DNA from: a virus
Lineage: Duplodnaviria > Heunggongvirae > Uroviricota > Caudoviricetes
Virus record (IMG/VR): IMGVR_UViG_3300045988_155334
DNA: 64,000 nucleotides
Reading direction: 5' to 3' (one strand)
Part shown: positions 27,796 to 56,652 of the stretch, one piece after another
Layout of the letters: each line of letters opens with the position of its first letter
Position numbering within the stretch: position 1 is the stretch's first letter
Made by a program: the position numbers and the translations under genes
The notes under the pieces: model-generated
What the model was told of the DNA's origin: nothing
The model's input: only the letters and a program-made list of their open reading frames with translations
Database searches by the model: none

Positions 27796-27886
27796 GTTAT
27801 CACCAATGATTTGCTCTGATTTTCGTTATTTTAACTTAGGTTGTTTGTGGTCTGCATGGCGTTTACTTATTATAAAATTGCTCTAA

Positions 27887-46715: not shown

Positions 46716-47222
46716 TTGAGTATTTTCAATAAACACGCACACCAGGAACGTCCGTACATCGTCATAGTAGATATTGATGGGACGATATCAGAGGCAACGG
46801 AAGACAGGCTGCATTTGCTTCCACCACCTGGCAAAGGTGCATTAACAGAGCACTGGAACGAGTTTAACCTTGCCTGTGACACCGATACTCCCATCACTCC
46901 AGTTATTGATATGGTGCGCCAGTTATTTAACGTTTACACGGTCTGGTTTGTAACCGGGCGCTGTGAGATCGCAAGGGATAAAACACGAGCCTGGCTGCGG
47001 AAGTACGTAACAAACGGGGCTGAGCCTTTGCTATCTATGCGTCCTGCCACCGATGACAGAAATGACGGCCCAGCAAAGATTGATCTCCTTAAGAAAATTG
47101 GTCTAAGTAAAATCGCGTTCGCGCTGGAAGATAAGATTGAAGTGGCGCGTGTTTTCAGAAGTCACGGTGTACTTACGTTAATGGTCAGGGAGTATGAAAA
47201 CGCGCTTCTTCATCAACAATAA
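46716..47222 (+). CDS. HAD-superfamily phosphatase-like protein
   Basis: 168 aa; motif I VDIDGTI; fold resembles polynucleotide 3'-phosphatase or nucleotidase. Confidence 0.55.
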   Translation: MSIFNKHAHQERPYIVIVDIDGTISEATEDRLHLLPPPGKGALTEHWNEFNLACDTDTPITPVIDMVRQLFNVYTVWFVTGRCEIARDKTRAWLRKYVTNGAEPLLSMRPATDDRNDGPAKIDLLKKIGLSKIAFALEDKIEVARVFRSHGVLTLMVREYENALLHQQ

Positions 47223-47238
47223 TTGCTCTAATAAATCT
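47222..47238 (+). promoter_or_regulatory. C1 operator overlapping the promoter of the rightward accessory operon
   Basis: ATTGCTCTAATAAATCT, 16/17 match. Confidence 0.6.
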
Positions 47239-47416: not shown

Positions 47417-48142
47417 ATGAAAGGCGAAGTGAAAGAGCGCGGCATGATTTTCAACGATGAGATGGTCCGGGCCATCCTCGAAGGAAGGAAAACGCAGACG
47501 CGGCGGATAATGAAAAATCAGCCTGCGGAAGTTGGTCCAGAAGCACCAGTGATGGTTAGAAAAATTGGTGCAGGTTTTCAGTGGTACGGGGCTGATGGTG
47601 TAAGCAGTGTTTTCAATTGCCCCTTTGGTATCGTCGGCGATCGAATTTGGGTTCGTGAAACATGGGCGATATTAGGCAATGAGGATGGTTGCAGTGTGGA
47701 CTGGAACGACAACCTTTGTCGTGGCGATGAGAAGAACGCAGCAAGGATTTATCGGGCCAGTTGCGAGCAAAAACCTGGTGATTACGGCTTATGGTCGATA
47801 CCCGATGATGCCGACTGGAAACCTCACACTGTGAATGAAAAGTTTGATGGTGGGTGGCGTCCATCAATTCACATGCCGCGATGGGCATCACGCATCCTGT
47901 TGGAAATTACCAACGTGCGCGTTGAGCGGTTGAACGATATCAGCGAATGCGATGCAAGGGATGAGGGCGTTCCGCCTGCTGGAAGTTTGCTTCCTGATCA
48001 CCCGGGAACATTCCTTACTCCCAAGGGGGATTTCGCAATGGCCAAGGTTGCGTTCCAGCGCCTGTGGGAATCCATCTACGGCGAAGAAAGCTGGAGTGCT
48101 AATCCCTGGGTTTGGGTAATCGAGTTTGAGCGTATTCAGTAG
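47417..48142 (+). CDS. ASCH-domain (PUA-like) protein
   Basis: 241 aa; FNDEMVRAILEGRKTQTRR N-terminal signature. Confidence 0.5.
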   Translation: MKGEVKERGMIFNDEMVRAILEGRKTQTRRIMKNQPAEVGPEAPVMVRKIGAGFQWYGADGVSSVFNCPFGIVGDRIWVRETWAILGNEDGCSVDWNDNLCRGDEKNAARIYRASCEQKPGDYGLWSIPDDADWKPHTVNEKFDGGWRPSIHMPRWASRILLEITNVRVERLNDISECDARDEGVPPAGSLLPDHPGTFLTPKGDFAMAKVAFQRLWESIYGEESWSANPWVWVIEFERIQ

Positions 48143-48151
48143 GGCGAGCGT

Positions 48152-48373
48152 ATGCAATCAGTTATTTGTGAGGAAGTCGGCCTGAATAAAGCATCCCCAG
48201 CAGAGTTAAGAACAAGTCTCGAAATGGCGCATAGCCTTGCTCAAATTGGTGTCAGGTTTGTACCAATTCCAGTTGAAACAGATGAAGAATTTCACAGGTT
48301 AGCGGCATCGGCAGCACAAAAGCTGGAAATCATGGCAGCGAAAGTAGAGAAAGCTGAAGGAGCGACAAAATGA
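48152..48373 (+). CDS. Small hypothetical protein
   Basis: 73-aa ORF, translationally coupled to the next. Confidence 0.35.
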   Translation: MQSVICEEVGLNKASPAELRTSLEMAHSLAQIGVRFVPIPVETDEEFHRLAASAAQKLEIMAAKVEKAEGATK

Positions 48374-48585
48374 GCAAGCCAACCGACGAAGAAATAGTTC
48401 GGGTGTTGGAAGAACACGGGCGCTGTATGACTTACGTCGTGACCAACTGGCTTAGGGATAAATATCGCACACTCAAAACGGCATACGTTTTGCGTCGTCT
48501 AAAGAAACTGGAGTTCGACGGGAAAGTAAAGCGCGTTAACAGTTCTTATATAAGACAAATTTGCTGGGAGGCATCCAGTGAGTAA
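48370..48585 (+). CDS. Small winged-helix-like DNA-binding protein
   Basis: 71-aa ORF. Confidence 0.35.
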   Translation: MSKPTDEEIVRVLEEHGRCMTYVVTNWLRDKYRTLKTAYVLRRLKKLEFDGKVKRVNSSYIRQICWEASSE

Positions 48586-49222
48586 CCGTTTTTACATGAT
48601 GTGCTTGCGTGAAACTGTGGGTAATAACGCCTCATTCCATTGCCATAACGGCAATGGTTACAGTTCTGATATCGATCGCGCTCATGTTTACACGCTGGAA
48701 GAAGCCCAAAAAGCCTGGAATTGTGGGCGAGATATCGATCAGCCTGTTTGTGCCGATAGTGTGGATGCAATGGCTGTGTGGCACGTTGATTGCCAGTACA
48801 TCCCTACAGAAAGCCTGATTGAGTCAGATTGCACTGAGTATGTGGCCTACAAAAAAGGTAGCTGGAACGGCAACGATGTTTACTGGCTTCAACACGGTGG
48901 ATTGCCAACAGATGACTTCAGTAAAGCGACCATCTTTAGCGTCGCCAACAAAAACGAACCAGGAATAGTTTGGTTGCCATTTTCCATTGCTGATGCAGCA
49001 AAGCGCCGGACGTTCAATATCAATAACTTTAACCGCAGAACAATGGTTCAGGGCGCAGGTTTGGTCATGCCTGACTGGTTGAAAGAGCAGAACAGAAGAA
49101 AGAAGTCGCGAAGCGGGAAGGTGCGTTGGAATTGTCCGCATTGCGGAAAAATAACCTGGCAGTACAGCCCATATGATTTTGAAGGCTGTAGTGATTACAA
49201 CTGTGAAGGATGGCGAGAATGA
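48578..49222 (+). CDS. Cys-rich protein with C-terminal zinc ribbon
   Basis: 214 aa; ...CPHCGKITW...CSDYNCEGW. Confidence 0.4.
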   Translation: MSNRFYMMCLRETVGNNASFHCHNGNGYSSDIDRAHVYTLEEAQKAWNCGRDIDQPVCADSVDAMAVWHVDCQYIPTESLIESDCTEYVAYKKGSWNGNDVYWLQHGGLPTDDFSKATIFSVANKNEPGIVWLPFSIADAAKRRTFNINNFNRRTMVQGAGLVMPDWLKEQNRRKKSRSGKVRWNCPHCGKITWQYSPYDFEGCSDYNCEGWRE

Positions 49223-49899
49223 CAATTGACTATCAGGTACTGCGTGAGGCGGCAGAAAAGGCAACACCAGACGAATGGGTCGCATTTATTTCGACGGATA
49301 CTGGTACTTATGCGGTGCACACGCCCGGTGATGAACGATGTGAAGACGTTATCAAATGGACCGGCTTTGATGGACAGAAAAATGCAGAGAACAACGCTCG
49401 TCATGTTGCCGCGTTCAACCCAAAGGTTGCACTGGAGCTGCTTGGTGAAATTAAGTGCCTGGAGGACACAAATATTGATGCTATGTGTCGAATTGCAGAG
49501 CTTGAGACTAATCTCGCGGCGCTGGTGGCGGAGAATGCGGGGCTAAAGGCGATATGTGATGACCGTCGCAGATTCATCATGAATGGGGTGCAGATGGGTT
49601 ATATCAAGGTGCCAGCAGCGGAAACAGATCCAGACCTTGAGACAATTCGCATTGCTATATCACCACAAAAGCCCATTCCAGCCACTGATGCTTTCCTGTC
49701 TGAAGTGCGGGCGCAGGGGGTGGATGCTGCTATAGAAGCTGCAAAAAATCTGGTGGTCCAAGAATATGAGTATAAGGATTTCAAAGCGGCGCAGAGTGAT
49801 TGCTGTATGCACCCTGGTTCAGACCTGGTAGGGAAGGTTGAAATGACTGAGTGGTTAGTTGACTTTGCTGCCCAGCTTCGCAAAGGAGGCAACCAGTGA
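49210..49899 (+). CDS. Ead/Ea22-like protein, paralog 1
   Basis: 229 aa; N-terminus IDYQVLREAAEKATPDEW; coiled coil. Confidence 0.45.
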   Translation: MARMTIDYQVLREAAEKATPDEWVAFISTDTGTYAVHTPGDERCEDVIKWTGFDGQKNAENNARHVAAFNPKVALELLGEIKCLEDTNIDAMCRIAELETNLAALVAENAGLKAICDDRRRFIMNGVQMGYIKVPAAETDPDLETIRIAISPQKPIPATDAFLSEVRAQGVDAAIEAAKNLVVQEYEYKDFKAAQSDCCMHPGSDLVGKVEMTEWLVDFAAQLRKGGNQ

Positions 49900-50522
49900 G
49901 CGAAATTAATTACCAGGCATTGCGTGAGGTGGCGGAACGTGCAATTCCAGCAATGGAACGCCTGTTAATGTTGCCAGCTGATGATGATTTGTTAAGTGAA
50001 CAGGAACTTAAAGATTACGGTGTGGATATTGATGCGCTCAACGCCTTCAAATTTCTGACCGGACCAGAAACCGTGCTGGCGCTGCTGGATGAACGGGAAA
50101 GAAACCAGCAATACATAAAACGCCGCGACCAGGAGAACGAGGAAATTGCGCTAACTGTAGGGAAGCTGCGTGTTGAGCTGGAAGCCGCAGAGAAGCGCAA
50201 CGCAAAATTACAAAGCGAGAATGCATACATCCGCAACCGGTTCAAAGAGCTGGACCTGTTAATCGGGAAAAACATTCTGGTCATGCAGGCTGCGATTATC
50301 GAATGGCAGGCAACTGGCGACGCTAAAAGCGGACTGGCATGGATTTATAACACACTGTTTGGCCCAGGCGAATTGCCGGACGAATCTGAGAAAGATGCTC
50401 AGGCCTACTTTAATCGCAAATATGCACCGATTGACGAAAAGCTTATGGAGCTTCACAAGTGGTTTTGGGAACAAAGTGAAGCCGAGCGCGCCGCTGGCAT
50501 TCGCATCAAAGGAGGTGAGTAA
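49896..50522 (+). CDS. Ead/Ea22-like protein, paralog 2
   Basis: 208 aa; N-terminus INYQALREVAERAIPAME; coiled coil. Confidence 0.45.
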   Translation: MSEINYQALREVAERAIPAMERLLMLPADDDLLSEQELKDYGVDIDALNAFKFLTGPETVLALLDERERNQQYIKRRDQENEEIALTVGKLRVELEAAEKRNAKLQSENAYIRNRFKELDLLIGKNILVMQAAIIEWQATGDAKSGLAWIYNTLFGPGELPDESEKDAQAYFNRKYAPIDEKLMELHKWFWEQSEAERAAGIRIKGGE

Positions 50523-50694
50523 TGCGTGTGGCATTTTTCGGCTTGTTACCGTACCCGCCTTGTTTTTGGACTTCTGCGCTAATTGCAAAGCCGCATGTCC
50601 TGATGGCTGACAACATCATCCCGGCACCAAAGCGCCGCCATACCGGTATTGCGGCTGCACGACGCGAAGCAAAGAAACGCAGGAGAGCAAAACG

Positions 50695-50883
50695 ATGAAA
50701 AACCGTAAAGCAAAGATTCTGTTAGTTCGTAGAAACGCTCCTGGCGTCTGGCAGTGGGTGAGACTCAGCAACCGACGGATGGGGTTGATGAAATATTACG
50801 GGATGATGGATTGTGGTTTTTGCAAAAAGCCCAGCGCGGCGCAAAACCGCTGGAAAAACCACTTGCGCACTAAAGGAGAGTGA
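50695..50883 (+). CDS. Small basic protein
   Basis: 62-aa ORF; start overlaps a preceding 58-aa ORF (50522-50698). Confidence 0.25.
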   Translation: MKNRKAKILLVRRNAPGVWQWVRLSNRRMGLMKYYGMMDCGFCKKPSAAQNRWKNHLRTKGE

Positions 50884-51104
50884 TGTGCCGACATTATTCA
50901 GAAAAGAATATCCGCGAAAAAGTAGAGCGACAGAATTTCTGTTTCTCATTCTGTTTATCGTGTTGATGACACCGATATCCCCGCTAATTTTTGTCTGGGT
51001 AATCGGGAAAATAATTGAGCCAGTTATTGAATTGTATAACGACGTGGTATGGGCGTCGTTCAATACACTGCACAATAAAATTAATCCATATAAGGAAAAC
51101 TGAA

Positions 51105-51470
51105 ATGGCACTGACGAAAAAACAACGTGCAGAGCTGCGCATGAAGTTCGGCGGTCGCTGTGCTTATTGTGGCTGTGAACTTGGCGAAAAGTGGCATGCA
51201 GACCATGTAAAACCGGTCATTCGTTTTGCTGGGAATATGCTTCACCAGGAACGTGACGATATATCCAACCTGGTTCCGGCATGCCACCCATGCAATCTGC
51301 ACAAGCATTGCAGTAGCCTGGAAGATTATCGGCGAATTATCAGTGATGGTCGTCGTGAATTCCTTGCGTCCGGGAAAGGCAAAGCGCTGGTTCGTATGGG
51401 ATTGGTTGAAATGAAATCTGACCCGGTTGTGTTCTGGTTTGAAAAATATCAAGAAGGGGATACGGCATGA
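51105..51470 (+). CDS. HNH endonuclease
   Basis: ORF 51015-51470; likely ATG 51105 after AAGGAAAA; CAYCGCEL...HADHVKPV...NLVPACHPCNLHKH. Confidence 0.7.
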   Translation: MALTKKQRAELRMKFGGRCAYCGCELGEKWHADHVKPVIRFAGNMLHQERDDISNLVPACHPCNLHKHCSSLEDYRRIISDGRREFLASGKGKALVRMGLVEMKSDPVVFWFEKYQEGDTA

Positions 51471-51853
51471 CCACTATTACCAAAGAGCGACTGCTGACAA
51501 TCAAGCAGTGGCGCGAAACATACGGACCTGGTAGCAACGTTGTACTGCCAGCAGAAGAAGCGGAAGAACTGGCACGAATTGCTCTGGCATCGCTGGAAGC
51601 AAAACCAATAGGTGCTTTCCACATTGCAGAACAGCAGGTCGATGGCACAAGTGACTACATCAAGGATGGGGAATGGCCTATTGATAATGGAATTATTGAG
51701 GTCTACGCCGCTCCACCCGTTCCAGTAGTACCGGAAGAAAAACCAATGCCTAATCCTCTTAGCATGTACGCGGTTGATGCTGTTGCCGCTATTGCAGAGG
51801 TAAGAGGCTGGAACGCCTGCCGTGCCGCTATGCTTGAGGGTAAAGGAGAGTGA
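51467..51853 (+). CDS. Hypothetical protein, paralogous to the N-terminus of the DUF551-like protein
   Basis: 128 aa; shares IALASLEA and GWNACRAAML with 52063-52947. Confidence 0.4.
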   Translation: MTTITKERLLTIKQWRETYGPGSNVVLPAEEAEELARIALASLEAKPIGAFHIAEQQVDGTSDYIKDGEWPIDNGIIEVYAAPPVPVVPEEKPMPNPLSMYAVDAVAAIAEVRGWNACRAAMLEGKGE

Positions 51854-51854
51854 T

Positions 51855-52052
51855 ATGGACAAAAACACACCTGCTTACTGGAGTTTATCACTTGATACTG
51901 AATGCCCAAAATGCGGCCACAATTTCGATCTGCTTTGCGATGCTGATTTCTGGGAATTTTCTGGAGCAAAACAGGCATGTGAAGAAATAAAAGGTTACGA
52001 AACATGCTGCCCAGAATGTAACCATGAATTTAAAACAGATTTTGTGTATTGA
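51855..52052 (+). CDS. Small zinc-ribbon protein
   Basis: ORF 51822-52052; likely ATG 51855 after AAAGGAGAG; CPKCGHNF...CCPECNHEF. Confidence 0.4.
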   Translation: MDKNTPAYWSLSLDTECPKCGHNFDLLCDADFWEFSGAKQACEEIKGYETCCPECNHEFKTDFVY

Positions 52053-52062
52053 GGCATAACGA

Positions 52063-52947
52063 ATGACCACTTTTACTAAAGAACAATTAATAGAGATAAT
52101 TAAGCGCAATATAACGGTTATGGATCGTTATCCTGATTTAGTAACTGCACAAATGGATCTGGAAGTATACAAAATCGCGCTGGCATCACTGGAAGCAGAA
52201 CCAGTTGCTTATATTTTCAAACATCCGGCCGGGAAATTATTCTGGGCTTTAACGGATGAAAGCAATAAAGAGCAATCGGACGTTATTCCTGTTTATGCTG
52301 ACTCACCTGCGCCGGTTGTGCCGGATGAAATAGACGTAAACGATGTACCAAGGGCGGTGACATATTTCAAGACACACAGAGATTGTTACGCAGATGGCTG
52401 GAACGCCTGCCGCGCCGCCATGCTTCAGTCCGGAAACTTTCGGGAAAACAAGAATTCGTCAACCAATAATTTTCGGGAAATCGCGGAAACGTCAACCAAC
52501 TATCCGGTAATTCCTAGTGAGGTGTTGTCCGCAATCCTGAAGGTTGCCAAGATTCGTGCCGATTTCGATGATTTTGACGGTGACAGGCGAGGTATCGGTG
52601 ATTGTCTGGATGAGGCTGAGCAAGAGCTTATCGTTACCATTAACAAATATGCCAGTCAGTTGGCAGCAGAACCGATAGCGACTAATGACGTTCGAGAGCA
52701 GACAGCCATTCCGCAAGTTCCGGTAACTCCGGATGGTTGGATAAGCTGTAGTGAGCGAATGCCGAATACCAAAACAGCCGTGCTTGTTGCCGTGGAGTTT
52801 GACAGGAAAGGTGACTGGCGAATGAAATGGGCTACTTACATCCCGGGGCATCCTGACGCTAATGATGGGTGGATAATTCCTGGTGCGTCGTGGAAACCGT
52901 CACACTGGATGCCGCTACCAGAACCGCCGCAGGAGGTGAATCAATGA
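52063..52947 (+). CDS. Protein with DUF551-like C-terminal domain
   Basis: 294 aa; C-terminus PDGWISCSERMPNTKTAVLV...HWMPLPEPP typical of lambdoid-phage DUF551. Confidence 0.5.
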   Translation: MTTFTKEQLIEIIKRNITVMDRYPDLVTAQMDLEVYKIALASLEAEPVAYIFKHPAGKLFWALTDESNKEQSDVIPVYADSPAPVVPDEIDVNDVPRAVTYFKTHRDCYADGWNACRAAMLQSGNFRENKNSSTNNFREIAETSTNYPVIPSEVLSAILKVAKIRADFDDFDGDRRGIGDCLDEAEQELIVTINKYASQLAAEPIATNDVREQTAIPQVPVTPDGWISCSERMPNTKTAVLVAVEFDRKGDWRMKWATYIPGHPDANDGWIIPGASWKPSHWMPLPEPPQEVNQ

Positions 52948-53029
52948 GCTGGCCTGAAGCATTCACCACGGTAGGAATTGTGATGGCGGCAGCGCTGGGT
53001 TTGTATTCAATTTGTCGCTGGTGGTAACG

Positions 53030-53263
53030 ATGGGGAAATTAACTTTTGTAGTCGAATTTGAGGATGGTAAAGAGCCACCTGTTAGCGCCAATCTTGATGT
53101 TGCTGGTGGCAGGCTTGTTTCGGTTCTATTTGGTGACTACCGAGATGACTTCTTCCAACCAGAAGAAGTTGATGTAGTGCGAGAGGCATTAAACGAGTTA
53201 AGTGTTGACAACGATGATGCTCATGCGGAAATCATCCAAAAAATGGAACTGCTAACTCACTAA
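53030..53263 (+). CDS. Small acidic hypothetical protein
   Basis: ORF 53012-53263 (TTG); likely ATG 53030. Confidence 0.3.
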   Translation: MGKLTFVVEFEDGKEPPVSANLDVAGGRLVSVLFGDYRDDFFQPEEVDVVREALNELSVDNDDAHAEIIQKMELLTH

Positions 53264-53441
53264 ATTAGAAATTATGGTGCTATCACCTACGACACCGAGA
53301 GAAAATTTATAATGTCAAAAGTAAATGTTTTGATTTTTTCAGCAATTGTTGGCTTTGGTTTTACTGCCGGAGTGCAGATTTATATTACGTGGGAAAAAAT
53401 CATCAACTACGCATGGAGTTGTTTTATTAAGTGAGGTAAGT

Positions 53442-53735
53442 ATGTGGAGAGGTAATAGTCATGGCAAAAGCCAGATGATACTTACCGAATATCAGCTCGA
53501 CCACAAAACCAATAAATCACGCTCAGTATATTTGCTCCGGCACAATAGCCGTGTAAGAAATACCGTGCTGGAACAAAATCTGACAGTTGAAATGGATAAT
53601 TACGGGGGCTTCAAGCCAACAATTTCGCTTGATGATTTTCCTCGTGGTTTAAGCGAAAGAGAAGCAATGCTGAAATTAGCAGAATGGCTACAAAGATTAA
53701 GCATTGCTATTGAAGATAACTGGTCTGAACCTTAA
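53442..53735 (+). CDS. Small hypothetical protein
   Basis: ORF 53346-53735; likely ATG 53442 after GTGAGGTAAG. Confidence 0.35.
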   Translation: MWRGNSHGKSQMILTEYQLDHKTNKSRSVYLLRHNSRVRNTVLEQNLTVEMDNYGGFKPTISLDDFPRGLSEREAMLKLAEWLQRLSIAIEDNWSEP

Positions 53736-53741
53736 ATTTAT

Positions 53742-54116
53742 ATGATGACACTAAAACATTTTCTTGACCGCCCATTATGGGCGGCAGCCGCAGGCTATGA
53801 CTTTAATTATATGGATTGCATGTCTTATACTGCCAATGCATACGACCATTCGTTCACCCTGCTGTTTAATTCTTTAAGAATATTGCCGGAAACAGAAGTT
53901 GGAGAGCTTCATTTATGGCTATTGGGCTTTATCGCGGCTGTCGTTGGCATTGCTGTATGGCCTTTTATTTTCTGGCTGGTGGCTGTTGTAGTGTGGTTTA
54001 AGTGCAAGACATACCGGAAAAAGTATTTCTTGGGTGACGGAATGACTGATATTGCCAAAATGAACATTGAAAAATGGACTAAGGAATGTGAAAAGAAATG
54101 GCGCAAAAAGAAATGA
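53742..54116 (+). CDS. Small membrane protein
   Basis: 124 aa; two hydrophobic helices (LWLLGFIAAVVGIAVWPFIFWLVAVVVWF). Confidence 0.4.
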   Translation: MMTLKHFLDRPLWAAAAGYDFNYMDCMSYTANAYDHSFTLLFNSLRILPETEVGELHLWLLGFIAAVVGIAVWPFIFWLVAVVVWFKCKTYRKKYFLGDGMTDIAKMNIEKWTKECEKKWRKKK

Positions 54117-54778
54117 CTACTCTAACGACAGCATACTTACAGCAATTGGTATTTTTTGCAGGCGAGGCTACTTGTCATCCTGACACAAACTATTTATTGG
54201 AATTTGAGAGGTTAGCGTCACCCGGTATCGTTCTGGAACTGGCCCAACAGGTACTGGCCTTGAGACAAAAAGAGCAACATGAAAGTAATACGTGTAGATT
54301 GAATTTTGAGCAGTGGCTGGAACAGCAACGCGGAAAAATCGATGTGGACTGTGGTTGTGTGTCCACTGAAACATTCATGCACTGGCTGCGGGTAGCTTAC
54401 GAGGCTGGCAACTATCCGGATATTCCGGATAGTTCGGTGTCAGCGCCAGGAAAGGGCGTCACCGGTGGACGTATCCGCATTAAGCCGCATGTTTATCGCG
54501 AACTGGTTAACCGTCTCCACGATACAGCGATCAAGTGTGCTGGCACCCAGCAATTACGAGAAAGAATTAGCCGTGTTTTGGGCGACGTTATTACGCCAGA
54601 TCATCATAAACAAGCCGAGAAAAGTGGCTTGGAAAGGTGTCACCTTGAGGCGGCATTAAACATTAAGCCGGGGCATACGCTTGGCATTATTGATGCACTA
54701 TTGGTTCATAAGATGGCCAGGGCTTTATTGCCGCTGGTGGCTGAAAAGCATGAGGCGGACCATGCCAACGAAAGCTGA
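54098..54778 (+). CDS. Hypothetical protein
   Basis: 226-aa ORF; start overlaps the preceding gene. Confidence 0.4.
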   Translation: MAQKEMTTLTTAYLQQLVFFAGEATCHPDTNYLLEFERLASPGIVLELAQQVLALRQKEQHESNTCRLNFEQWLEQQRGKIDVDCGCVSTETFMHWLRVAYEAGNYPDIPDSSVSAPGKGVTGGRIRIKPHVYRELVNRLHDTAIKCAGTQQLRERISRVLGDVITPDHHKQAEKSGLERCHLEAALNIKPGHTLGIIDALLVHKMARALLPLVAEKHEADHANES

Positions 54779-55046
54779 GTTACAGGCGCGCATAGAGATT
54801 CTTGAAAAAGAGAATGCGAGTCTAAAAGGAATGCTGGCGCGGGCGGAAAGGGAATTATCAGGCAAATTATTGCCAGAAGAGCTGCCACCAGCAGATATAC
54901 CTGATCGAGTGTCCTGGTGGATGAAGTATTTCCGTGCACCGTGGGAGGCGTTTTGGTGCTACGACCATCGCAGATGGTGTGATGAGCTTGATAGCAGTTT
55001 CCCCTATTTTGCGGAAGGGAACTCTTGCCCTGAATGTAGGAGTTAA
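54762..55046 (+). CDS. Coiled-coil protein with C-terminal Cys motif, paralog A
   Basis: ORF 54681-55046; likely ATG 54762; C-terminus PWEAFWCYDHRRWCDELDSSFPYFAEGNSCPECRS. Confidence 0.4.
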   Translation: MPTKAELQARIEILEKENASLKGMLARAERELSGKLLPEELPPADIPDRVSWWMKYFRAPWEAFWCYDHRRWCDELDSSFPYFAEGNSCPECRS

Positions 55047-55351
55047 TGATGACCGGCGAGCTTTATTTTAAAATGGCACGGGAGCGGCGTGTGCATCTGG
55101 ATCGGATATTTCATCTCCAGAAGAGAGTAGAAGAACTGGAACGTCGTCTGAACTGTTATCCTGTTGATATGGTGTCTGCAATACCGCCGATTCCAATAGA
55201 AATGCAGATCCGCCTATGGATGGAAGAATATGGAATGCCGTGGGAGATATTTTTCTGCTTCGACCATAAACAGTGGGTAGATGAGCTGGATAATAGTTTC
55301 CCATATTTCACAGAGAACACATGCCCAGTATGCAGGAAGAACGGAATATGA
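55046..55351 (+). CDS. Coiled-coil protein with C-terminal Cys motif, paralog B
   Basis: 101 aa; C-terminus PWEIFFCFDHKQWVDELDNSFPYFTENTCPVCRK. Confidence 0.4.
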   Translation: MMTGELYFKMARERRVHLDRIFHLQKRVEELERRLNCYPVDMVSAIPPIPIEMQIRLWMEEYGMPWEIFFCFDHKQWVDELDNSFPYFTENTCPVCRKNGI

Positions 55352-55872
55352 CAAAATTTGGAAAGCTGGAAGCTCATTTGCTAACTCGTAACTACCGCCA
55401 TGATATACACCCATATAGACAGTGGATCGATGAAAGCGAAGGAGTAGTTACATTCCCTCTATACAGGTTTGATGGGATGTTGGCTGGGTATCAGACATAT
55501 AGACCAGGTGCTCCTAAGCAGCATAGCAATCCGAAGATGGCCCGGTATTTCACGCGATCACACGGCAGACAGTTACTTTGGGGAACCTATCTTCCTTTAA
55601 AAGATGGCCCAATATGGATAACTGAGTCTATTTTTAAGAGCGCAGCTGTACACAATGCGGGCGGCAATTCGTGGGCGCTGTTAGGTTCGACTTTCTCCGC
55701 AGGATTACGCCGTCAACTTGCGATGCTGCCGTATGACTTTCGTGTAATAGGTGACAATGATGCGGCTGGTAAATTACTTGTGAAGTCTTTCGGAAAAGGT
55801 TTTGTGGCCCCGGATCTTGACGAGCTACAACCACATGAAGTGTCTCATTTGATTTTTAGCCATAGCAAATAA
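55348..55872 (+). CDS. Standalone Toprim-domain protein
   Basis: ORF 55321-55872; likely ATG 55348 (ATGA overlap with the upstream stop); conserved Glu in ITESIFKS and DxD in VIGDNDAAGK. Confidence 0.5.
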   Translation: MTKFGKLEAHLLTRNYRHDIHPYRQWIDESEGVVTFPLYRFDGMLAGYQTYRPGAPKQHSNPKMARYFTRSHGRQLLWGTYLPLKDGPIWITESIFKSAAVHNAGGNSWALLGSTFSAGLRRQLAMLPYDFRVIGDNDAAGKLLVKSFGKGFVAPDLDELQPHEVSHLIFSHSK

Positions 55873-55932
55873 GCATCTCTCCCCTTTGAGGCCACAATTA
55901 GTGGCCTTAAACAATGTGTTTTCTACCTCGAT

Positions 55933-56514
55933 TTAGCCTCTATTATCGTTTTGCATTTCTCTAATCCGGTTCAGAACTACTTCATGCTGGGCTTGGATAG
56001 CGGCTTTTTCGTTTTCAAGTCGGGCAATAGACATCTCTAATTCTTTGCTGTACCAGGCGAGTTGGGCCAGGTTCATCCGGTTGTGGTCGAGAGTTGGAGA
56101 CACGTCGACGCGCTCCCTTTCTTCCTGCTTTAATGAGAAGAGATTCATCTCATCCCTTGAGGAAAATTCAGCAACAATTTCTTGTTGATGATCCGGTCGC
56201 TGCGGCATCCTCGCCAGTATAAATGGCGGTTCTTTTGAAAACATGAATGTCGGCTGTGACCGTGTTTTCACCCATCTAGCCTGCTGCCCTTCGGCAAGTT
56301 CACAGGCTTCATCATAGTTATTTGCCAAACCAAGCACGGATGGACGGTCCCACGCGCCACCATTCAGACAATAAACAACAATTTTCCCGTCAGGTTGTGT
56401 AACCCCATAGGGATGGTCCCACCAGACGTCCAGCTGAGCTTTAGAGCGTTTCTCGTTAGGAGTGCAGTCAAAATTTTTGGGCAATACAGGATCGAGAGGA
56501 ATGCGGGCAGGCAT
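55933..56514 (-). CDS. Hypothetical protein divergent from humD (Lxr-like by position)
   Basis: 193-aa ORF; LexA box lies in the shared upstream region. Confidence 0.35.
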   Translation of the reverse strand: MPARIPLDPVLPKNFDCTPNEKRSKAQLDVWWDHPYGVTQPDGKIVVYCLNGGAWDRPSVLGLANNYDEACELAEGQQARWVKTRSQPTFMFSKEPPFILARMPQRPDHQQEIVAEFSSRDEMNLFSLKQEERERVDVSPTLDHNRMNLAQLAWYSKELEMSIARLENEKAAIQAQHEVVLNRIREMQNDNRG

Positions 56515-56652
56515 AGCTAATTCCTTATTAACTGATTGGCAACGAGGTTACGCTGATCCGTTGGTGATGAATAGTAGCAAAGCGCACAAAATCATCAGCG
56601 GTGGTTGATGTACGTAACGCGTTTGCACCAAAGGTGTCTCTTTAATGTATAC

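Follow-up and report, generated by a model that had tools for sequence, protein, structure and literature searches.

Lambda Ea8.5, TraR/Orf73 and Lar exemplify a recurrent, poorly understood class of small zinc-binding proteins that temperate phages encode in their early operons. Ea8.5 (PDB 2M7A/2M7B), which has a hybrid homeodomain/zinc-finger fold, is a non-essential, zinc-associated protein of ~93 amino acids (aa) encoded in the early operon of a temperate coliphage, just upstream of xis-int; its function is unresolved (PMC8614690). TraR/DksA-like proteins, lambda Orf73 among them, are small phage or plasmid proteins in which a long N-terminal helix is joined to a globular zinc-binding part; they are encoded among early accessory genes. 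The primases DnaG, T4 gp61 and T7 gp4 carry zinc-binding domains (ZBDs) with the pattern C-x2-H-x(17-19)-C-x2-C. Features of all these systems recur in the products of two adjacent open reading frames (ORFs), ORF1 and ORF2, of a 64,000-nucleotide stretch of viral DNA (IMG/VR record IMGVR_UViG_3300045988_155334; hereafter, the window), which represents a P1-like phage-plasmid (Punavirus). ORF1 and ORF2 belong to a true family of small, acidic proteins of ~95-105 aa with a predicted zinc domain, previously unnamed and organized into two subtypes. Our preferred reading, to which we assign a probability of roughly 0.45, is that these proteins are dimeric, zinc-stabilised, protein-binding accessory factors made at the onset of lytic growth.

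Two paralogous genes with a common C-terminal domain

In line with a sequence-only reading of the window, which had proposed two adjacent ORFs of ~95 aa with a common C-terminal motif, ORF1 (type A; MPTKAELQ...CPECRS) occupies positions 54762-55046 and ORF2 (type B; MMTGELYF...CPVCRKNGI) positions 55046-55351, both on the + strand, and they encode proteins of 94 and 101 aa, respectively. The motifs quoted in that reading are exact, and both proteins carry PWE-F-C-x2-H-x2-W-x-DELD-x-SFPY...C-P-x-C. In a BLASTP comparison the two proteins are 52% identical over their last 54 residues (E=4e-22), a similarity far beyond chance that marks them, by their sequences, as genuine paralogs. The C-terminal domains as a whole are 53% identical, the N-termini 27%. 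Both genes are preceded by a Shine-Dalgarno sequence (GAGG and AGGAG, respectively). ORF1 and ORF2 overlap in the sequence TAATG, and ORF2 overlaps the next gene, encoding a small Toprim protein (mini-Toprim), in the sequence ATGA; judging by these overlapping stops and starts, ORF1 and ORF2 are translationally coupled to their neighbours. Differences between ORF1 alleles of P1-like elements are mostly synonymous (ratio of nonsynonymous to synonymous substitution rates, dN/dS, 0.06-0.37), and ORF1 is under purifying selection. Taken together, ORF1 and ORF2 are real, conserved genes.

AlphaFold2 models built with family alignments are confident (mean predicted local distance difference test score of 91 for ORF1 and 86 for ORF2) and display an identical order of elements. 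A long N-terminal helix (residues 4-33 in ORF1 and 2-37 in ORF2, where it includes the conserved LYFKMARERR segment) is followed by a Pro-rich linker (LLPEELPP in ORF1), a helix with the WM-x-EY motif and a short helix with PWE-x-F. Then come a beta-hairpin bearing Cys-x2-His, a loop in which ~12 residues of an 18-19-residue spacer are coil, and a short terminal helix that starts at Cys-x2-Cys. The C-terminal predicted zinc domain thus corresponds to residues ~45-94 of ORF1, with an equivalent domain in ORF2. This domain is acidic (median net charge across the family, -4.5), as are the two whole proteins (isoelectric points of 5.0 and 5.6).

Asn at a central a position favours dimers, as in the GCN4 zipper. 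The N-terminal helix of ORF1, with Leu at d positions 7, 14 and 21 and I11, N18, L25 and L32 at a positions, is by its heptads a textbook leucine zipper. The heptad run of ORF2 is shorter (I21/L24/V28/L31/L35) and is preceded by the conserved Arg-rich segment. Heptad analysis and the modelled helices thus bear out, for both proteins, the leucine-zipper N-termini that had been noticed in the sequence. We consider it highly probable that the general description of these proteins, a coiled-coil helix joined to a small predicted zinc domain, is correct.

The candidate metal site

Four Cys/His residues stand out in the C-terminal domain. In ORF1 the putative ligand codons are those of C66 (54957-54959), H69 (54966-54968), C89 (55026-55028) and C92 (55035-55037), all on the + strand, and the residues bracket the conserved W-x-DELD-x-SFPYF loop. 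Their counterparts in ORF2, likewise on the + strand, are C71 (55256-55258), H74 (55265-55267), C93 (55322-55324) and C96 (55331-55333), which fall into invariant alignment columns. The spacing is therefore C66-x2-H69-x19-C89-x2-C92 in ORF1 and C71-x2-H74-x18-C93-x2-C96 in ORF2, and the conserved core consists of C-x2-H-x18/19-C-x2-C together with P60, W61, F64, W72, F80 and P81 (here and below in ORF1 numbering).

In an alignment of 39 close relatives L32, P43, P60, W61, F64, C66, H69, W72, P81, C89 and C92 are invariant. Among 38 diverse members, taken mainly from 50%-identity clusters, only C66, P81, C89 and C92 remain invariant, and F64, H69, W72 and F80 are conserved in at least 90%. Two of the 38 are without His69 and carry Cys in its place (CHEC, CQIC). 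The family signature can accordingly be written as C-x2-[HC]-x18-20-C-x2-C around W-x2-ELD-x2-FP[YH]. The C-terminal motif as quoted from the two ORFs was thus right in its core, but two of its residues, the Asp that precedes the His and the Cys of 'RRWC', vary across the family. Since C66, C89 and C92 are invariant and the nearly invariant His is exchanged only for Cys, we propose a Cys-His-Cys-Cys metal site; the conservation pattern strongly suggests the four residues as putative ligands of a single zinc ion, an interpretation that goes beyond the sequence-only reading, which named no zinc site.

A small family of temperate phages and phage-plasmids

Both proteins match PHROG 3797, which has no annotated function, along the whole of its profile (positions 1-94 of 94), ORF1 with residues 1-94 (E=9.3e-58) and ORF2 with residues 18-98 (E=1.6e-36). 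This entry represents the ORF1/ORF2 family itself and records nothing on zinc, subtypes or function. Pfam searches with ORF1, ORF2 and the 38 family members produced only sub-threshold coiled-coil noise, NCBIfam and PADLOC searches with ORF1/ORF2 produced zero matches (PADLOC being negative for defence annotation), the family profile retrieved only coiled coils from PDB sequences, and a fold search for relatives of solved structure gave no match. A Foldseek search against BFVD returned two significant matches, the family member of Klebsiella phage LASTA and an unnamed 63-aa protein. The impression that the C-terminal motif is not a named domain was therefore correct as far as Pfam, NCBIfam, PADLOC and PDB are concerned, PHROG 3797 being the only match. 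Neither the accession numbers nor the PHROG identifier retrieved anything from the literature.

An exhaustive HMMER search over 1.84 billion representative proteins collected 46 clusters with E<1e-3, nearly all of 90-115 aa. A word-indexed search yielded 63 clusters at 90% identity; where a source is named, as it is for only a few of them, it is Escherichia, Salmonella, Pantoea or Erwinia. In annotated phages, members are found in Klebsiella phage LASTA, P22-like Salmonella phages, Proteus phage Brookers, a Vibrio phage and the P1-like elements RCS47 and D6. PLSDB contains 154 plasmids with a family member. Among complete E. coli genomes 146 of 5426 (~2.7%) have one, mostly on P1-like plasmids, and 24 of these 146 carry the entire ORF1+ORF2 stretch; a scan of species-representative genomes revealed one locus only. 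The family is thus small and of narrow phylogenetic spread. All members that could be placed reside in temperate phages or phage-plasmids of Enterobacterales and Vibrio, inside strings of early accessory genes.

Outside P1-like elements the genomic position of the gene follows a few patterns. P22-like phages have it between ninF and ninG, and phage Brookers after the replication genes. At about a dozen lambdoid prophage loci it is found at the far end of the leftward early operon, followed by a phrog_536 gene, an excisionase-like gene and the integrase gene; the same position before xis-int is occupied by ea8.5 in lambda. In a survey of neighbours at 92 loci, the sole recurrent neighbour outside P1-like elements was this phrog_536 gene, then xis/int, within related lambdoid prophages. 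Upstream genes vary, and the survey found no informative functional partner. The family member and the phrog_536 gene may together form a conserved pair that closes the early-left operon. The phrog_536 protein, labelled 'transcriptional regulator' (locus L004, 6296-6634, and ~11 other lambdoid loci; cluster c21), is 112-136 aa long and has an Arg/Ala-rich N-terminus and a C-terminal C-x2-C with further Cys.

A record of the gene is also found on the host side. A 32-nt spacer in the type I-E array of clustered regularly interspaced short palindromic repeats (CRISPR) of E. coli LI60C3 (chromosome NZ_CP136900.1, next to cas2e; locus L104, 601-636) is identical to window positions 54925-54956, the ORF1 codons for KYFRAPWEAFW. 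In the window this protospacer is preceded by ATG, a functional type I-E protospacer-adjacent motif. The identity of the spacer with a segment of ORF1 indicates that a host has recorded a meeting with an element carrying an ORF1-type gene.

Two old subtypes, their tandems and recombinants

The N-termini of the family fall into two types, with the pattern MPTKAELQ...ARAEREL..KLLPEELPP in type A and ..ELYFKMARERR...LE.RL.CY...IPPIP in type B. In this region ORF1 is 63% identical to the type A proteins of both a Citrobacter plasmid and an Erwinia prophage, and ORF2 is 46-59% identical to other type B proteins, compared with 17-27% between type A and type B. The C-terminal domains, on the other hand, are 40-73% identical in every combination. 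Because each subtype retains its own conserved N-terminus across different backbones, A and B are two old subtypes rather than products of a fresh local duplication. The sequence-only reading had explained the pair by duplication with divergence of the N-termini; the common C-terminal domain and the divergent N-termini are confirmed, but a local duplication followed by divergence is not. Its further suggestion that ORF1 and ORF2 are specificity variants is plausible.

An ordered A-then-B tandem, in which the two genes abut or overlap, is present in three unrelated backbones. The first is the P1-like cassette; the second comprises RepB-type phage-plasmids of Citrobacter (L020 and L094, and also L093 with a different downstream region), where the tandem comes right after a humD-like gene and is not accompanied by a Toprim gene; the third is an integrase-bearing prophage (L097). 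Type A alone is found in lambdoid prophages and in most P1-like elements, where a minus-strand gene and hot come next; type B alone is found in locus L005 and in LASTA. The repeated A-then-B arrangement suggests that the two types could act together, possibly as a heterodimer.

Several metagenomic and genomic variants of the family are natural recombinants. Two A/B chimeras (P0001 and P0004) have their junction at the shared PWE region, in P0010 a deletion fuses type B to humD, and P0084 is a natural in-frame fusion of 285 aa, in which a PmgU-like protein of the 226-aa kind encoded upstream of ORF1 (see below) is joined to type A. These variants show that the tandem pair recombines actively, both internally and with the genes that flank it. 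In addition, the occurrence of frameshifted, truncated, chimeric and fused alleles (P0001, P0004, P0010, P0046, P0050, P0084) indicates that genes of the family are dispensable.

The cassette at the end of the early gene string

Region 53500-56600 of the window is 96-99% identical to many plasmids of 90-100 kb from E. coli, Salmonella and Shigella, mostly non-mobilizable, the best plasmid match being typed IncY, and is partly identical to P1, P7, SJ46, RCS47 and D6. ORF1, ORF2 and the mini-Toprim gene end an uninterrupted string of + strand genes (47417-55872). Upstream of this string lies a perfect operator of the C1 repressor (47222-47236, + strand), which equals the OpmgT core of P1 according to the P1 annotation. 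The operator core ATTGCTCTAATAAAT has 10 matches with at most two mismatches in the window, compared with 0.19 expected. The sites include those at 27877, 31399, 45080/45131 and 47222, and together map the C1 regulon of the P1-like element. At the other end, a hairpin with an 11-bp stem (55885-55911, + strand), detected by a consensus scan only, separates the convergent mini-Toprim and lxr genes and is likely where the + strand transcription unit ends.

The window shares with P1 the N-terminal part of pmgT together with pmgU, lxr, humD, phd and doc, but not pmgV, upfM, upfN, upfO or hot. The phd/doc pair is located ~2 kb downstream of ORF1/ORF2. The slot between the pmgU-like gene and lxr is filled by ORF1, ORF2 and the small Toprim gene (window 54762-55872, compared with P1 locus L001, 3373-4649). 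In two other P1-like elements, RCS47 and D6, the slot holds ORF1, a minus-strand gene for a 116-aa protein and hot instead. The pmgU-lxr interval is thus a hotspot of cassette exchange for replication-related accessory genes.

The gene immediately upstream of ORF1 (54098-54778, + strand) encodes a 226-aa protein, and its 3' end overlaps the start of ORF1 by 17 nt. The C-terminal 101 residues of this protein are 93% identical to P1 PmgU. Residues 1-232 of P1 PmgT match positions 47417-48112, and the counterparts of the PmgT C-terminus and of PmgU are found at 54396-54739. With respect to P1, pmgT (window regions 47417-48142 and 54098-54778) contains an insertion of ~6.3 kb, which consists of accessory genes (Ead/Ea22-like, DUF551, eaa and others). 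The 226-aa ORF, which is in the pmgU frame and has a new N-terminus, casts doubt on the annotation of pmgT and pmgU in P1. The same operon contains another small ORF (51822-52052, + strand; 76 aa) with the pattern CPKC...x38...CCPEC, which is zinc-ribbon-like and unrelated to the ORF1/ORF2 family.

The mini-Toprim gene (55348-55872, + strand) overlaps the stop of ORF2 with its start and encodes a stand-alone protein of 174 aa that is 42% identical to T5.076. Its family, with lengths of 160-185 aa, has members in 489 phage records, among them T5 (T5.076), Kagunaviruses and jumbo Erwinia phages. The protein has the invariant Glu and DxD of Toprim domains (E93, D136-x-D138) and an N-terminal GYQ-Y-P...ARYFT...WG motif, and is without a zinc-binding and a helicase-binding domain. 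It matches PHROG 849, 'DNA primase', over positions 143-333 of the 435 in the profile only. Its genomic neighbours in T5 are tRNA genes, and in Shewanella and Vibrio phages a tRNA nucleotidyltransferase gene.

Proposed mode of action

According to our preferred reading, that of a dimeric protein-binding accessory factor, the amphipathic N-terminal helix would most likely form a parallel coiled-coil dimer, and the zinc ion would hold the conserved acidic-aromatic loop in place. The coiled coil would supply bivalency. Types A and B would present a common binding domain on different helices, and might also combine into a heterodimer. Given their place at the distal end of a C1-controlled early operon, the genes are expected to be silent in the plasmid prophage and to be switched on at the start of the lytic cycle. 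From the acidic C-terminal domain, the dispensability and the patchy spread among early 'moron' regions, we infer that the target is a protein rather than DNA. It would belong to the host, or else be a co-resident phage factor, and take part in DNA replication, repair or defence. Targets of this kind are the most plausible given the neighbouring genes, namely, hot, humD, lxr and Toprim genes in phage-plasmids and recombination and nin genes in lambdoid elements.

A bolder version of this scheme is that the proteins have an undescribed zinc fold and use the W-x-DELD-x-SFPY loop in a dimeric decoy or inhibitor that catches a host replication, repair or defence protein as lytic growth sets in, with A/B heterodimers widening or switching the range of targets. 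We offer it tentatively, as possible but doubtful.

Several points weigh against a dimeric, zinc-stabilised protein-binding factor. Zinc binding is deduced from residue conservation. No homolog of known function points to any particular target. Both subtypes are often solitary, so that heterodimerisation cannot be obligatory. Finally, the KMARERR segment of type B could bind nucleic acid, and several members weakly match bZIP models (E ~0.006-0.09, below the Pfam thresholds).

The last of these points lead to the alternative that survives best, although we consider it unlikely: a nucleic-acid-binding regulator of early transcription or of the choice between lysis and lysogeny, acting through a bZIP-like helix or through a zinc module that contacts DNA, RNA or RNA polymerase. 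Roles of this sort have been put forward for some lambda exo-xis proteins, namely, Ea8.5 and Orf73/TraR. In type B the Arg/Lys-rich KMARERRxHL is conserved just N-terminal to the heptads, as would suit a basic region, but type A has no such region, and both the whole proteins and the C-terminal domain are acidic. Matches to bZIP_1/bZIP_2 occur in 4 of the 38 members; being sub-threshold, they are such as any coiled coil gives. Position is also suggestive, for lambdoid prophages have a member at the place of lambda ea8.5 before xis-int, followed by the phrog_536 'transcriptional regulator', and proteins of the exo-xis region are suspected modulators of transcription (PMC8614690). However, the conserved N-termini lack a DxxDxA acidic tip, and hhalign probabilities were 1.8% against TraR and 4.7% against Ea8.5.

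Both of the latter proteins were considered as relatives and rejected. A TraR/DksA-like RNA polymerase binder (PF01258) was dismissed on the grounds of sequence, ligand set (C4 in that family) and missing hallmarks. Ea8.5 had come into consideration for its CPxC tail and its position, and its sequence, as read here, contains C-x2-H and C-P-x-C, potential metal ligands as in ORF1/ORF2; the sequence comparison was not significant.

Considerably less probable is a split primase, in which ORF1/ORF2 would provide in trans the Cys-His-Cys-Cys domain that mini-Toprim, as a DnaG-like core, is missing, so that the phage-plasmid would assemble a primase from several pieces, three if both ORF1 and ORF2 take part. 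The spacing C-x2-H-x18/19-C-x2-C does resemble the CHC2 pattern of DnaG (CPFH...CFGC in the E. coli enzyme), mini-Toprim keeps its Toprim residues yet has no ZBD, and PHROG 849 covers it only in part. This pattern alone is not diagnostic of zf-CHC2, however, and profile comparisons were negative: zf-CHC2 (PF01807) gave no match to ORF1/ORF2 at E<=1 and was not among the best 25 of 62 families for the 38 members, and hhalign probabilities were 0.6% for the E. coli DnaG ZBD, 7% for T7 gp4 and 16% for T4 gp61. The fold search found no match. The ORF1/ORF2 domain also differs from primase ZBDs in being acidic and preceded by a coiled coil.

Gene order argues in the same direction. ORF2 is coupled to the Toprim gene by the ATGA overlap, but this linkage is confined to a single, nearly clonal cassette, whose copies are at least 99% identical in the records that carry it, and so represents one event only. 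No Toprim gene adjoins the members in lambdoid, P22-like, Lastavirus, Vibrio and Citrobacter elements (seven other element types in all). Conversely, at seven other mini-Toprim loci (five, plus those of T5 and a Kagunavirus) the upstream genes are unrelated and there is no such zinc-finger neighbour. The 46 clusters contain no fusion with a primase or Toprim domain, the only long true match being the PmgU-like fusion P0084. The link to the neighbouring Toprim protein suggested by the sequence-only reading is thus not supported by co-occurrence outside one P1-like cassette, and the split-primase idea, with primase profiles also negative, is poorly supported. The database label 'DNA primase' is itself unproven for mini-Toprim, which could instead have a role in RNA processing or act as a nuclease.

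That ORF1/ORF2 proteins are antitoxins of a toxin-antitoxin pair is scarcely credible: the only point in its favour is the product name 'antitoxin PHD' on some RefSeq/UniRef entries for ORF1 homologs (e.g. WP_208769494.1; L002, 3263-3547), but BLASTP against the window's own Phd gave E=0.44, antitoxin families of Pfam and NCBIfam gave no match, PADLOC was negative and no toxin-like neighbour is conserved, the downstream genes being variable and not toxins, so that, with no similarity to Phd, the name represents a propagated misannotation.

Implications for temperate phages and phage-plasmids

The family is carried by P1-like phage-plasmids, a Lastavirus, and P22-like and lambdoid phages and prophages. 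What it adds to the known small zinc-binding early accessory proteins is a compact module without a detectable Pfam or PDB relative, with a candidate metal site, a confident structural model and a natural two-subtype system. A modest practical gain is that the name 'antitoxin PHD' can be corrected and that the family could be registered as a domain of unknown function, its signature being CHCC. If the proteins turn out to have no measurable effect, the family would represent one further conserved 'moron'. If, however, it is true that they target a host replication, repair or defence factor, they would offer a new tool and another instance of how a phage takes over its host.

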